From a virus (Duplodnaviria; Heunggongvirae; Uroviricota; Caudoviricetes), in the IMG/VR virus record IMGVR_UViG_2695420596_000010: 5,938 bases of DNA. The stretch is one strand, 5' to 3'. The notes under the pieces were generated by a model. It made no database searches. It was not told the DNA's origin and saw nothing but the letters and a program-made list of their open reading frames with translations. Below, in pieces: positions 1,637-5,938 of the stretch (its first letter is position 1; every line of letters begins with the position of its first letter). The position numbers and the translations under genes are program-made.

Positions 1637-1665
1637 TTGACCATCAATACGCAAGCGTATAAATT
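1637..1665 (+). promoter_or_regulatory. Candidate pRM-like promoter producing a leaderless CI-like mRNA
   Basis: -35 TTGACC (1637-1642), 17-bp spacer, -10 TAAATT (1660-1665). The predicted start falls at about 1672-1673, on the ATG at 1673, and no Shine-Dalgarno precedes that ATG. The dyad at 1647-1660 overlaps the spacer. Confidence 0.4.
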
Positions 1666-1672
1666 AAAACTT

Positions 1673-2365
1673 ATGAAAAAAGAAACTCTTGCTGATCGCT
1701 TAAACCTAGCGATGGAACAATCTGGAATGTCTCAAGGCGCTCTTGCAAAGGCGTCTGGCGTAGCTCAACCCACAATCTGGAGACTGACAAGCGGCAACGC
1801 TCGCGGCTCAACAAAAATTGTTGAAATAGCTAATGCATTGGGTGTTCGAACAGAATGGCTCTCATCAGGCATAGGCCCGATGAGAAATGACGGTCAACAA
1901 TCAGGGAAGCCTGCTGTCAGCCATTCAAAATACTTCAAAATTGACGTTCTTGATATAGAAGTCAGTGCCGGGCCGGGAGTCATCAACCGTGAGTTTGTAG
2001 AAGTTCTACGCTCGGTTGAGTACTCGTTTGACGATGCTCGTCACATGTTCGATGGTAGGAAGGCAGAAAATATCCGCATCATTAACGTACGCGGTGACAG
2101 CATGTCAGGAACGATCGAACCAGGTGATCTTCTGTTCGTTGATATCACGGTTAAATCTTTCGACGGTGATGGTATCTATGCGTTTCTGTATGACGACACA
2201 GCCCATGTAAAGCGCCTGCAAATGATGAAGGATAAGCTGCTAGTTATCTCTGATAACAAGAGCTACTCACCGTGGGACCCGATCGAGAAAGACGAGATGA
2301 ACCGGGTATTCATCTTCGGGAAAGTCATCGGAAGCATGCCGCAGACGTATAGGAAGCATGGGTAG
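1673..2365 (+). CDS. CI-like prophage repressor: N-terminal XRE-type HTH plus C-terminal S24 (LexA-like) autopeptidase domain
   Basis: The track ORF 1637..2365 begins at a TTG; the first ATG is 1673 (MKKETLADRLNLAMEQSGMSQGALAKASGVAQPTIWRL = HTH). The C-terminal half has the S24 signatures: a candidate Ala-Gly cleavage site (EVSAGPG), the serine motif RGDSMSGTIEPGDLLFVD and the lysine motif HVKRL. This implies RecA/SOS-inducible autocleavage. Confidence 0.85.
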   Translation: MKKETLADRLNLAMEQSGMSQGALAKASGVAQPTIWRLTSGNARGSTKIVEIANALGVRTEWLSSGIGPMRNDGQQSGKPAVSHSKYFKIDVLDIEVSAGPGVINREFVEVLRSVEYSFDDARHMFDGRKAENIRIINVRGDSMSGTIEPGDLLFVDITVKSFDGDGIYAFLYDDTAHVKRLQMMKDKLLVISDNKSYSPWDPIEKDEMNRVFIFGKVIGSMPQTYRKHG

Positions 2366-2476
2366 TGAAGGACGTGTCAACTCTATTTTGTAAGCTATCC
2401 AGACTCACAGTTGCAGATCGACGAGTAACTTACATACAGCACAAAAAAACAATATGCACGTGCTTTTAGACTAGAC

Positions 2477-2491
2477 TTACCATAATGGTAA
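2477..2491. promoter_or_regulatory. Palindrome TTACC-ATAAT-GGTAA at the 5' end of the toxin gene; candidate autoregulatory operator of the TAC operon
   Basis: Perfect 5-bp inverted arms separated by 5 bp, overlapping the ATG at 2485. MqsA-family antitoxins are known to bind short palindromes in their own promoters; the assignment here is inference. Confidence 0.4.
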
Positions 2492-2895
2492 CAAGTATGA
2501 TTCTTAGCAGATATGTGGGAACTCCTCCCCGTGATGGCGAGGACAGAAAGATTCAAGGTGGTCCGCTTTATTTAGATATCATTGATTTGATTGATGAATG
2601 TGACACACTGCCTTGGACTAGACGGTGTATCAGGGATGTTCAATCGCTTTCTTTAGATGCAGATGACATCAAATCTATGGTGATAAAAGCAGTCACTAAA
2701 GGGAGATTTCTAGGTTCAGAATGGTGTCAAGGCAGTAAACCAGGTGTATGGGCAGCTTGTGATGCTTATAGCTTTGAGCACTCATTTTGGTGCCAAGCTA
2801 TGCATAAAGAACTTAATAACGAGTTCTACATTAAATTTTTTGTAAACATTACTGGCAATGTAGTGCTTACAGTATCTCTTCATCTCTCTAATTGA
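2485..2895 (+). CDS. MqsR-like toxin (type II toxin-antitoxin toxin, RelE/MqsR-fold mRNA interferase family)
   Basis: 136-aa ORF directly upstream of an MqsA-like antitoxin. By eye it aligns with E. coli MqsR (PLYLDIIDLI...LSLDADD..., EFYIKFFVNITGNVVLTVS versus MqsR QVYLKITVIHDVLIVSF). Toxin-before-antitoxin order is characteristic of mqsRA. The start is uncertain: 2485 has no clear RBS and 2497 is an in-frame alternative. The region is AT-rich. Confidence 0.6.
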   Translation: MVTSMILSRYVGTPPRDGEDRKIQGGPLYLDIIDLIDECDTLPWTRRCIRDVQSLSLDADDIKSMVIKAVTKGRFLGSEWCQGSKPGVWAACDAYSFEHSFWCQAMHKELNNEFYIKFFVNITGNVVLTVSLHLSN

Positions 2896-2919
2896 GTGAT
2901 GATAAATGAGGATTTTTAT

Positions 2920-3507
2920 ATGAGAAACAACAACATATGTCCAGTTTGTGGTGTAGGTCATCTCACCGTGGAGATGGAGTATGATGATGTTACTTATAAA
3001 GGGGAAACAAAAAATCTCCCAATAAGGTTTTCTGTGTGTGATCAATGTGGTTCGGAAACTGCCACACCAGTCGATTTACGAGAAAACAAACGAATTTTCA
3101 ATGAATACAAAAAGTCTATCGATGGACTTTTAACAGGAAAAGAATTAAAAAAAATTAGAACTGAAGTATGGATGATAACCCAGCAAAAGGCATCCTCTAT
3201 ATTTGGTGGGGGGCCTAAGGCATTTTCCAAGTATGAATCTGATGATGTCATTCAATCAGAAGCAATGGATAAACTGATGCGTTTAGCAGCAGAAGTTCCT
3301 GATGCATTCAAAAGGTTACGGGAATTATCTGGCGAAATCAAAGTTGAAAGAACAGTCTCATCATCTAAATCTTTACCTATATGGAAATCTGAAGCAAAAG
3401 CACAATTTGAAAACGATGATCAGGGATTTGACAGCAAATCACCAGCCCAAACAAAAATGAATCAAACATCAATAAAGATAAAAACTGTTGCTAAGCGGGT
3501 AGCATGA
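2920..3507 (+). CDS. MqsA-like antitoxin: N-terminal zinc-ribbon, central XRE-type HTH, and a ~60-70-aa C-terminal extension (candidate chaperone-addiction segment)
   Basis: Motifs CPVCGVGHL and VCDQCGSE (zinc ribbon), then ITQQKASSIFGGGPKAFSKYESDD, closely resembling the MqsA HTH (LTQKEASEIFGGGVNAFSRYEKG). GAGGA (2908-2912) sits 7 nt upstream of ATG 2920. The track ORF begins at GTG 2896, immediately after the toxin stop (2893-2895). The C-terminal tail (from ~3300) has no counterpart in the 131-aa E. coli MqsA. Confidence 0.8.
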   Translation: MRNNNICPVCGVGHLTVEMEYDDVTYKGETKNLPIRFSVCDQCGSETATPVDLRENKRIFNEYKKSIDGLLTGKELKKIRTEVWMITQQKASSIFGGGPKAFSKYESDDVIQSEAMDKLMRLAAEVPDAFKRLRELSGEIKVERTVSSSKSLPIWKSEAKAQFENDDQGFDSKSPAQTKMNQTSIKIKTVAKRVA

Positions 3508-4007
3508 TGAATGAACTTCTTAGATCAGCAATAGACGCATTATCAATAATGCATATCAATATCAGAGAATCTAACTTTGCTTTTTCTGAAGGGTATAATA
3601 GCTTTAACTTCAACAGCATAAATAAGCAAACACAATCATTTCGTAAGATAAAAAAAATCGAAGCTATTGAATTAGTAAGTGACGATGACTCATTAAAAAA
3701 TGAGCTATATTACTCTTTTCACTACTCAGTTGGGCTTAGATTTATTGCAAAATCCGAAGAAACATCTAAAGACGAAAATGATGTTGATACAATTTTTTCT
3801 ATAGAAGCAATTTTTGAGGCGATATATCGCTCAAAGAGAGAATTATCTAAAGAAGAGTTAGAAGAATTTGCTAAGCAAAATGTAGGTTTTAATGTATGGC
3901 CTTTTTGGCGAGAGTATGTTCAAAACAGCACATCCAGAATGGGAATTACTACAATAGCTATACCATTCTTTAAATTCAATAAATCAGACATACCTTCATT
4001 AGATTAA
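3504..4007 (+). CDS. SecB-like chaperone (third component of a toxin-antitoxin-chaperone module)
   Basis: 167-aa ORF whose ATG overlaps the antitoxin stop (ATGA at 3504-3507), suggesting translational coupling. The C-terminal half aligns by eye with E. coli SecB (TIFSIEAIF versus GIFSIAGI; NVWPFWREYVQNSTSRMGITTIAIPFFKFN versus [29 protein letters not shown]). Confidence 0.7.
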   Translation: MMNELLRSAIDALSIMHINIRESNFAFSEGYNSFNFNSINKQTQSFRKIKKIEAIELVSDDDSLKNELYYSFHYSVGLRFIAKSEETSKDENDVDTIFSIEAIFEAIYRSKRELSKEELEEFAKQNVGFNVWPFWREYVQNSTSRMGITTIAIPFFKFNKSDIPSLD

Positions 4008-4021
4008 ATTCAAATATAACT

Positions 4022-4048
4022 CCCGGCTACCGTGCCGGGTTTTCTTTT
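4022..4048 (+). terminator. Rho-independent terminator of the TAC operon
   Basis: Stem CCCGGC (4022-4027), loop TACCGT, stem GCCGGG (4034-4039), followed by TTTTCTTTT (4040-4048), 15 nt after the chaperone stop codon. Confidence 0.65.
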
Positions 4049-4189
4049 GCCCTCCCCCCATCACACAAACCGTTCAAAAAACCACCACGACCTCACTTCA
4101 GTTATCGCTATGCGATGCAAGTCACAAAATTAATTCTTTTTGCTATCAAACATTTAATATCAAAACACATCAACTAATAGCAATAAGCA

Positions 4190-4777: not shown

Positions 4778-5938
4778 ATGAACGCTTATTACATTCAGGA
4801 TCGTCTTGAGGCTCAGAGCTGGGCGCGTCACTACCAGCAGATCGCCCGTGAAGAGAAAGAGGCAGAACTGGCAGACGACATGGAAAAAGGCCTGCCCCAG
4901 CACCTGTTTGAATCGCTATGTATCGATCATTTGCAACGCCACGGGGCCAGCAAAAAAGCCATTAAAGAGTTTGGATTAGGCAGAGACAGGCGAATCGCAA
5001 TCACTGAAGCTATACAGGCCAACATTGAGTTATTTTCAGGACACAAACACAAGCCTCTGACAGCGAGAATCAACAGTGATAATTCCGTTACGTTACATTC
5101 ATGGCTTGATCGCTACGAAAAAATCCTGGCCAGCAGAGGAATCAAACAGAAGACACTCATAAATTACATGAGCAAAATTAAAGCAATAAGGAGGGGTCTG
5201 CCTGATGCTCCACTTGAAGACATCACCACAAAAGAAATTGCGGCAATGCTCAATGGATACATAAACGAGGGCAAGGCGGCGTCAGCCAAGTTAATCAGAT
5301 CAACACTGAGCGATGCATTCCGAGAGGCAATAGCTGAAGGCCATATAACAACAAACCCTGTCGCTGCCACTCGCGCAGCAAAATCAGAGGTAAGGAGATC
5401 AAGACTTACGGCTGACGAATACCTGAAAATTTATCAAGCAGCAGAATCATCACCATGTTGGCTCAGACTTGCAATGGAACTGGCTGTTGTTACCGGGCAA
5501 CGAGTTGGTGATTTATGCGAAATGAAGTGGTCTGATATCGTAGATGGATATCTTTATGTCGAGCAAAGCAAAACAGGCGTAAAAATTGCCATCCCAACAG
5601 CATTGCATGTTGATGCTCTCGGAATATCAATGAAGGAAACACTTGATAAATGCAAAGAGATTCTTGGCGGAGAAACCATAATTGCATCTACTCGTCGCGA
5701 ACCGCTTTCATCCGGCACAGTATCAAGGTATTTTATGCGCGCACGAAAAGCATCAGGTCTTTCCTTCGAAGGGGATCCGCCTACCTTTCACGAGTTGCGC
5801 AGTTTGTCTGCAAGACTCTATGAGAAGCAGATAAGCGATAAGTTTGCTCAACATCTTCTCGGGCATAAGTCGGACACCATGGCATCACAGTATCGTGATG
5901 ACAGAGGCAGGGAGTGGGACAAAATTGAAATCAAATAA
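4778..5938 (+). CDS. int: Tyrosine site-specific integrase, lambda Int family; catalytic region near-identical to lambda Int, N-terminal ~66 aa unrelated (chimeric)
   Basis: From [38 protein letters not shown]... to the C-terminal ...[49 protein letters not shown] the protein matches my recollection of lambda Int almost residue for residue, including the catalytic motifs (R in GQRVGDL, HELR, LLGH, tyrosine in SQYRDD). The first ~66 aa ([21 protein letters not shown]...) do not match the lambda Int arm-binding domain. AGGAG lies 7 nt upstream of the ATG. Confidence 0.9.

Follow-up and report, generated by a model that had tools for sequence, protein, structure and literature searches.

The window analyzed here is a stretch of 5,938 nt from a defective lambdoid prophage of E. 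coli. Its plus strand carries three genes in the order of toxin-antitoxin-chaperone (TAC) systems (toxin, antitoxin, SecB-like chaperone), an arrangement shared by 50 related loci. The genes and features of the window are as follows.

Left part of the window, minus strand: YdaT-domain gene (in the cII position) and cro-like gene
1637-2365, plus strand: cI-type S24 repressor gene
2485/2497-2895, plus strand: MqsR-like RNase-fold toxin gene (136 aa from ATG 2485; 132 aa from ATG 2497), first of the three TAC genes
2920-3507, plus strand: antitoxin gene, 195 aa, second of the three
2920-3318, plus strand: antitoxin core, MqsA zinc ribbon and HTH, residues 1-133 (TIGR03830, Pfam MqsA_antitoxin)
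3319-3504, plus strand: C-terminal antitoxin extension past the end of E. coli MqsA, residues 134-195 (62 aa), a candidate chaperone-addiction (ChAD) segment
3373-3393, plus strand: first conserved tail motif LPIWKSE, residues 152-158, with the Trp155 codon at 3382-3384
3469-3504, plus strand: C-terminal hydrophobic island and terminus SIKIKTVAKRVA, residues 184-195, with the Val-Ala end, a putative ClpXP degron, at 3499-3504
3504-3507, plus strand: ATGA overlap of antitoxin stop and chaperone start, read from the sequence
3504-4007, plus strand: gene for the SecB-like TAC chaperone MqsC, 167 aa (profile, AF2 model, Foldseek), third of the three
4022-4049, plus strand: intrinsic-terminator-like hairpin (CCCGGC-TACCGT-GCCGGG) followed by the T run TTTTCTTTTG, closing the three-gene operon
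3' of the operon: kil-like ORF
4778-5938: fusion ORF, Gam residues 1-64 joined to a lambda-type integrase, the integrase part beginning at the arm-binding domain

The antitoxin starts at ATG 2920, which has GAGGA at 2908-2912, 7 nt upstream, and which is also the start in RefSeq WP_021568457.1. For the toxin, RefSeq and Vassallo et al. use ATG 2497, and homologs favor ATG 2485 (consensus MVxxxILSRY). Of 52 related loci, 51 have a SecB-like frame that opens upstream of the antitoxin stop codon, and in the window the ATGA overlap suggests that translation of the antitoxin and the chaperone is coupled. Overlapping ORFs in other frames (3302-3460 on the plus strand and 3491-3619 on the minus strand) were set aside, the region being explained by the conserved, homology-supported frame.

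Judged by the sequence that could be compared, the window operon is the MqsRAC anti-phage system of E. coli C496_10, described in 2022; the finding is thus correct but already known. Window positions 2397-2775 are identical to 379 nt of the “MsqRAC gene fragment” (Table S8, Vassallo et al. 2022). The gene-specific parts of five primers from the same study match exactly, at 2497, 2872-2895, 3490-3507, 3504 and 3985-4007; the matches at 3504 and 3985-4007 are those of mqsC-F and mqsC-R. Over 2776-4007, the comparison with the published fragment consists of these primer matches. Gene order, names and functions of C496_10 MqsRAC are as in the window, and the compared sequence showed no difference.

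The prophage and its operon

The RefSeq annotation labels the fusion ORF at 4778-5938 as two pseudogene fragments. In the intact phage PhiR70_1 (48.7 kb), whose antitoxin is identical to that of the window, the operon comes directly after cI and is followed by kil-gam-bet-exo…xis-int. Because this intact phage has gam, bet, exo, xis and int as individual genes, the window prophage must have lost everything between gam and int, and it is therefore defective. The same gene arrangement adjoins ybhC in strain E2. The prophage also carries emrE and ybcK (locus L001, 172-2285 and 9674-10957), and its integrase end abuts ybhC. We take emrE and ybcK to be markers of the DLP12 prophage; the presence of DLP12-type markers in a prophage with a ybhC junction suggests that it is mosaic or rearranged.

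The whole three-gene block was present in only 18 of 5,426 complete E. coli genomes, and no copy of the operon occurred in the plasmid collection searched. Partial matches to the 1.7-kb query, at 90-95% identity, were seen in ~1,100 E. coli genomes. Three plasmid matches were limited to window positions 4021-4100 (query 1622-1701), which comprise the terminator and the sequence just past it. From these partial genome and plasmid matches, the flank at 4022-4100 is far commoner than the operon.

The operon lies directly 3' of the cI-type repressor gene and on the same strand (window 1637-4049; 3754-6088 of locus L082). In phage lambda, the slot downstream of cI is occupied by the rexAB exclusion genes. 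Upstream of the toxin gene, the sole promoter candidate (2472-2501; 9/12 matches) is no better than chance and overlaps the start codons. A palindrome resembling the MqsA operator was not found upstream of the toxin, where the sole inverted repeat has 9 nt (2389-2434). As no dedicated promoter could be convincingly placed, the operon may share a transcript with the repressor gene in lysogens, possibly by read-through from the cI gene. Terminator-like sites numbered two in the region, compared with 0.8 expected.

The toxin and the SecB-fold chaperone

The toxin has the MqsR/RelE-like fold. In Pfam, the window toxin had no match at E <= 0.1, and it is thus not recognized by MqsR_toxin (PF15723); that model matched 6 of 33 relatives of the toxin, with a best E of 2e-5. 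An hhalign comparison with an approximate sequence of E. coli MqsR gave a weak match (E 0.047). Sequence and profile searches of the toxin against the PDB returned nothing useful, and neither the toxin nor the antitoxin was matched by a PADLOC model. The alignment with E. coli MqsR (98 aa) covers only the C-terminal ~90 residues of the window toxin. The ~35 residues at its N terminus (window 2485-2600), which include an invariant G-P-L-Y motif, are without a counterpart in E. coli MqsR.

MqsC was identified through its family. As a single sequence, it matched Pfam SecB below threshold (E 0.008; 16.5 bits vs a cut-off of 26), and PADLOC gave a weak match to PD-T4-9_C, i.e., CmdC. An exhaustive profile search yielded 3,129 MqsC relatives, 83 of which were used for a deeper family profile. 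Searched against the PDB, this profile had a sole match, Rv1957 of M. tuberculosis (5mtw; E 7e-7), and 9 of the 83 relatives matched Pfam SecB. The AF2 model of MqsC (pLDDT 91) has SecB topology. Foldseek with this model gave as best match 5mtw, which contains Rv1957 and a ChAD peptide (E 1e-7; TM 0.68/0.81), followed by the SecB structures 1fx3, 1ozb and 1qyn (H. influenzae and E. coli SecB, ~1e-5). As modeled, MqsC is a SecB-fold protein, and it is nearest to the TAC chaperone Rv1957.

The antitoxin tail and its association with SecB-like genes

The antitoxin belongs to the MqsA family, with strong matches to TIGR03830 (E 7e-33; 113 bits vs a cut-off of 61.8) and to Pfam MqsA_antitoxin (PF15731; E 2e-17; 63.9 bits vs a cut-off of 30). 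These family models span residues 15-142 of a 203-aa ORF started at GTG, corresponding to residues ~7-134 of the 195-aa antitoxin. In alignment with the solved structure of E. coli MqsA (3gn5), residues 6-133 match residues 4-132, the full extent of that protein. Cysteines C7, C10, C40 and C43 and the motif FGGG..AFSKYE are invariant among 37 antitoxin homologs. As the alignment places the end of the core at residue 133, the extension consists of residues 134-195, i.e., 62 aa.

Long tails are the rule in this family: they measure at least 25 aa in 112 of 120 homologs (median, 54 aa), and eight of the 120 are tail-less. With identities of 63-77%, the closest homologs align to 100% of the window antitoxin. 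Judging from these homologs, the tail is not a chance read-through.

A preliminary description of this DNA had reported a 195-aa antitoxin with an extra C-terminal segment, and both points hold; the last 60 residues are exactly those quoted there. It had placed the extension at 3300-3507. The tail exists, but that 5' limit was ~19 nt too generous, the actual extension being 3319-3504. The tail was also described as hydrophilic and low-complexity. The first term is apt, as the GRAVY of the tail is -0.86 vs -0.50 for the core. The second had to be dropped: the tail uses 17 different amino acids and has no 12-residue window at or below 2.2 bits (a SEG-type criterion), being merely biased toward Ser and Lys (29% together). 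Relative to the charge-hydropathy boundary, the composition of the tail is on the disordered side.

The tail evolves quickly around a few fixed positions. Averaged over 13 close homologs, identity to the window residue drops from 0.72 in the core to 0.39 in the tail. This fast-evolving tail nonetheless has three invariant positions (G138, W155 and A195) and three that are 92% conserved (E143, E158 and V194). The fixation of W155, G138 and A195 points to selection for specific contacts. Tail positions 6-32 include an aromatic residue in each of 49 unique SecB-linked tails, and in 45 of them a Trp; in the window tail, F163 and F170 are also found near W155. Toward the C terminus, the segment IKIKTVA is the hydropathy peak of the tail (+0.93). 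A strand-like hydrophobic motif occurs within the last 32 residues of 45 of the 49 SecB-linked tails, where it often reads P-x-L-R-V-V-S-S-S; its form in the window is SIKIKTV.

The last residue of the 49 unique SecB-linked tails is Ala in 26 and Gly in 15. The protein search gave a similar picture, with a C-terminal Ala in 55 of 112 long-tailed homologs (AA in 24, VA in 15). In the whole set of homologs (P0001-P0120), the ends of long MqsA tails fall into classes, about half of them ending in Ala (AA, VA, YA or CA) and about a fifth in His, and many tails from SecB-linked genome loci (L038-L080) end in Tyr-Gly. These classes hint at differing routes of degradation or recognition inside one family. 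Overall, with its disorder-like composition, conserved aromatic anchors and Val-Ala end, the anatomy of the tail appears to resemble that of known ChADs.

We asked how tails are distributed relative to SecB-like genes in 80 loci with antitoxin relatives, taken from contigs of one genome per species, whose reading frames were searched with chaperone, toxin and antitoxin profiles. The counts cover only those loci that could be parsed with enough downstream DNA. A SecB-like gene lies directly downstream of the long-tailed antitoxin in 50 of 57 loci and is lacking in seven. Among the loci with short-tailed antitoxins, it is missing in seven of nine; in the other two, the antitoxins look like truncated tails. 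The association has an odds ratio of 25 (Fisher p = 1.3e-4, calculated as if the loci were unrelated).

Tail-less antitoxins occur in 9 of the 68 parsed loci. Three of these loci (L036, L047 and L064) are without a SecB-like gene and yet have the same toxin family upstream. Because the same family of toxin is paired with tail-less antitoxins where no chaperone gene is present, the tail is apparently not needed for neutralization itself. This observation bears on the idea that the tail is mainly a toxin-binding, neutralizing segment, like the disordered C termini of many type II antitoxins. An additional interface is conceivable, as the toxin, at 132 or 136 aa, is ~35 residues longer than the 98-aa E. 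coli MqsR. We nevertheless consider this explanation extremely improbable. Besides the three tail-less pairings, the toxin in the solved MqsR-MqsA complex is bound by the N-terminal zinc domain (title of the 3hi2 entry), and the conserved aromatic anchor and Val-Ala end of the tail are features of ChADs and degrons.

Seven long-tailed relatives are without a SecB-like gene within 400 nt downstream (L030 from Enterobacter intestinihominis, L013, L031, L044, L056, L060 and L073). Their tails are 25-72 residues long; that of L030 has 39 aa with two Trp. These relatives may use another partner or an unlinked chaperone, or their tails may be unrelated.

There is a second way to account for chaperone dependence, in which the dependence resides in the folded MqsA core (for example, in folding of the zinc ribbon) and the tail is a passive appendage or linker. 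The low identity of the tail relative to the core would fit a passive role, as would the seven long-tailed relatives that have no SecB-like neighbor, and truncation data for this MqsA were not found in the literature searched. The invariant W155, G138 and A195, however, lie inside the fast-evolving tail, and the presence of a tail tracks that of a SecB-like gene. Moreover, the MqsA of E. coli K-12, which has the same core, needs no chaperone (Bordes et al. 2016, PMC5105189), and in three other systems, among them the V. cholerae homolog, the tail alone confers dependence (see below). Chaperone dependence of the core is accordingly quite improbable.

Probable chaperone addiction and the response to phage T2

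In known ChADs, it is buried Trp, Tyr or Phe residues that mediate recognition. Published TAC systems provide three sets of precedents for the tail. The closest is the Vcho-TAC of V. cholerae RC385 (MqsR-MqsA-SecB-TA), which has the same three families in the same order as the window. Grafting residues 136-176 of its MqsA transfers chaperone dependence (Bordes et al. 2016, PMC5105189). Vibrio relatives near-identical to this MqsA (e.g., P0101) have a core that is 41% identical to that of the window in the multiple alignment (46% by BLAST), and SecB-like partners of the Vcho-TAC type were recovered by the same chaperone profile. By these comparisons, the graft-tested ChAD of V. cholerae is that of a member of the window antitoxin's own family. 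Its tail starts at the same point after the HTH, and its Trp (…QTSW…) aligns with W155 of the window; apart from this Trp, the two tails have no confident alignment. The Vcho-TAC tail differs in being shorter (41-44 aa vs 62) and in ending …ELEACY(V/G) rather than Val-Ala. Tails of the form AGVERNI…W…ELEACYG are also seen repeatedly among marine relatives, Vibrio included, that have a SecB-like gene downstream.

The second precedent is HigB1-HigA1-SecB-TA of M. tuberculosis (Rv1955-Rv1957), whose chaperone Rv1957 is the solved structure nearest to MqsC, although the two chaperones are only ~14% identical. Its ChAD is likewise a C-terminal extension, recognized via a buried Trp and Tyr: in 5mtw, which contains the ChAD peptide 104-EVPTWHRLSSYRG-116, Trp108, Arg110 and Tyr114 of HigA1 are buried in the chaperone (PMC6377645). 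HigA1 ends in Val-Ala, a ClpXP degron, and the same dipeptide ends the window tail. This system differs from that of the window in that its toxin and antitoxin are HigBA and not MqsRA, and it is not known to act against phages.

The third comprises HigBAC (strain NT1F31) and CmdTAC, prophage-borne TACs of E. coli like the window operon. In these systems, the ChAD is recognized via spaced aromatic residues and a phage protein competes for the chaperone; in HigBAC, this is gpV, which competes with the ChAD for binding to HigC (Mets et al. 2024, bioRxiv 10.1101/2024.02.24.581848). The Val-Ala terminus of HigA1 and the Ala-Ala terminus of CmdA are described as ClpXP degrons in the same study. Both toxin-antitoxin pairs differ from MqsRA, and the HigA ChAD has 96 aa with four aromatic anchors ~30 residues apart, whereas the 62-aa window tail has W155, F163 and F170 close together. 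For E. coli HigA, as for V. cholerae MqsA and Mtb HigA1, the tail alone confers chaperone dependence and removal of the tail abolishes it (PMC5105189; Mets et al. 2024). Outside the Trp and the terminal residues, the window tail has no convincing similarity to the V. cholerae or Mtb ChADs, and published ChADs are themselves mutually dissimilar in sequence (PMC5105189).

We conclude that residues 134-195 are very probably the ChAD of an mqsR-mqsA-mqsC TAC operon that lies immediately 3' of the cI gene in a lambdoid prophage. The preliminary description had put the extension forward as a candidate ChAD situated directly before the SecB-like gene. The position is borne out by the ATGA overlap and by the SecB fold of the chaperone, with Rv1957 as its nearest relative, and the ChAD assignment by the co-occurrence of tail and SecB-like gene, the conserved anchors and the published chaperone dependence of the same DNA. 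The comparison with characterized ChADs that it had called for gave the alignment of the V. cholerae Trp with W155 and the Val-Ala end shared with Mtb HigA1.

For the published system, toxicity of MqsR is rescued only by MqsA and MqsC together (Vassallo et al. 2022 Fig. 5i, PMC9519451). In E. coli K-12, MqsRAC confers protection from T2 though not from T4, and the T2 defense is abolished by excess MqsC (PMC9519451). The T2 defense has been confirmed, with dormant survivors (Fernandez-Garcia et al. 2023, PMC10783111), and MqsRAC is cited as an established TAC by Mets et al. 2024 (bioRxiv 10.1101/2024.02.24.581848).

These data and precedents lead to the following model. The tail would be an unstructured appendage on an otherwise complete MqsA, as its sequence and alignment indicate. 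If the Mtb SecB-TA/ChAD crystal structure and the work on E. coli HigC and HigA are taken as a guide, the co-translated SecB-like tetramer MqsC would bind this tail as MqsA is made, with Trp155 as a likely anchor, Phe163 and Phe170 as possible ones and a further contact at the strand-like SIKIKTV segment. Such binding would also hide the C-terminal Val-Ala. Without MqsC, the exposed tail would leave MqsA non-functional and MqsR would not be neutralized, a requirement for the chaperone that has been demonstrated experimentally with the same DNA (Vassallo et al. 2022, PMC9519451). The route is probably ClpXP degradation that begins at the Val-Ala end, and misfolding may contribute. Bulk hydropathy of the tail is low, with only short hydrophobic islands, and an aggregation tendency is not evident from its sequence; given so little bulk hydrophobicity, destabilization may proceed via the Val-Ala degron and ClpXP and not via aggregation. 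During T2 infection, a phage product would compete for MqsC, MqsA would be lost, and MqsR would cleave mRNA until growth stops. The tail would in this way create dependence on the chaperone while being dispensable for neutralization, as the comparison with tail-less relatives suggests.

The last part of the model has a variant, in which phage sensing falls to the tail: it would be bound or cleaved directly by a T2 protein, and MqsC would merely protect it in uninfected cells. Fast evolution of the tail is what an arms-race surface would be expected to show, and the literature found does not identify the trigger of MqsRAC. The abolition of defense by excess MqsC argues instead that the chaperone is the titrated component, which agrees with the trigger by chaperone titration that the preliminary description had envisaged, and in HigBAC it is the chaperone HigC that gpV binds, competing with the ChAD. 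We hold a sensor tail to be very improbable; it would still treat the tail as a ChAD and so is more a variant of the main explanation than a rival to it. All three alternatives to a ChAD that acts through MqsC are disfavored because of the co-occurrence pattern, the natural controls provided by tail-less relatives and the precedent in homologous systems.

A more specific reading, which we offer only tentatively and consider rather doubtful, divides the tail into two parts: (i) the Trp155 motif, LPIW[KRH]SE, would dock in an aromatic pocket of MqsC, and (ii) the Val-Ala end would be a ClpXP degron that MqsC hides.

TAC systems couple a toxin that arrests growth to how much of a dedicated chaperone is available, and phage proteins can titrate this chaperone; the ChAD tail sets both dependence and specificity. 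The behavior of MqsRAC as a system has already been published, and the present analysis therefore adds no new kind of biology. In effect, the preliminary description arrived independently, from sequence alone, at a TAC characterized in 2022 and at a ChAD concept that had existed for MqsA-type antitoxins since 2016. We found no deletion, point mutant, graft or ChAD map of this MqsA tail in the literature searched. What is added here is a residue-level map of the likely ChAD of this E. coli MqsA (the 133/134 boundary, Trp155 and Val-Ala) and a comparative control in the form of tail-less relatives without a chaperone gene, both of which provide direct targets for mutagenesis and for the search for the T2 trigger. 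The prediction of a ClpXP-dependent trigger is a further contribution. If the two-part reading of the tail is true, MqsRAC would be a proteolysis-triggered TAC like CmdTAC and not an aggregation-triggered one like HigBAC, and the T2 trigger would be expected to mimic the Trp motif, in the way that gpV does for HigC. Tail motifs could then serve to predict the phage triggers of MqsA-type TACs.
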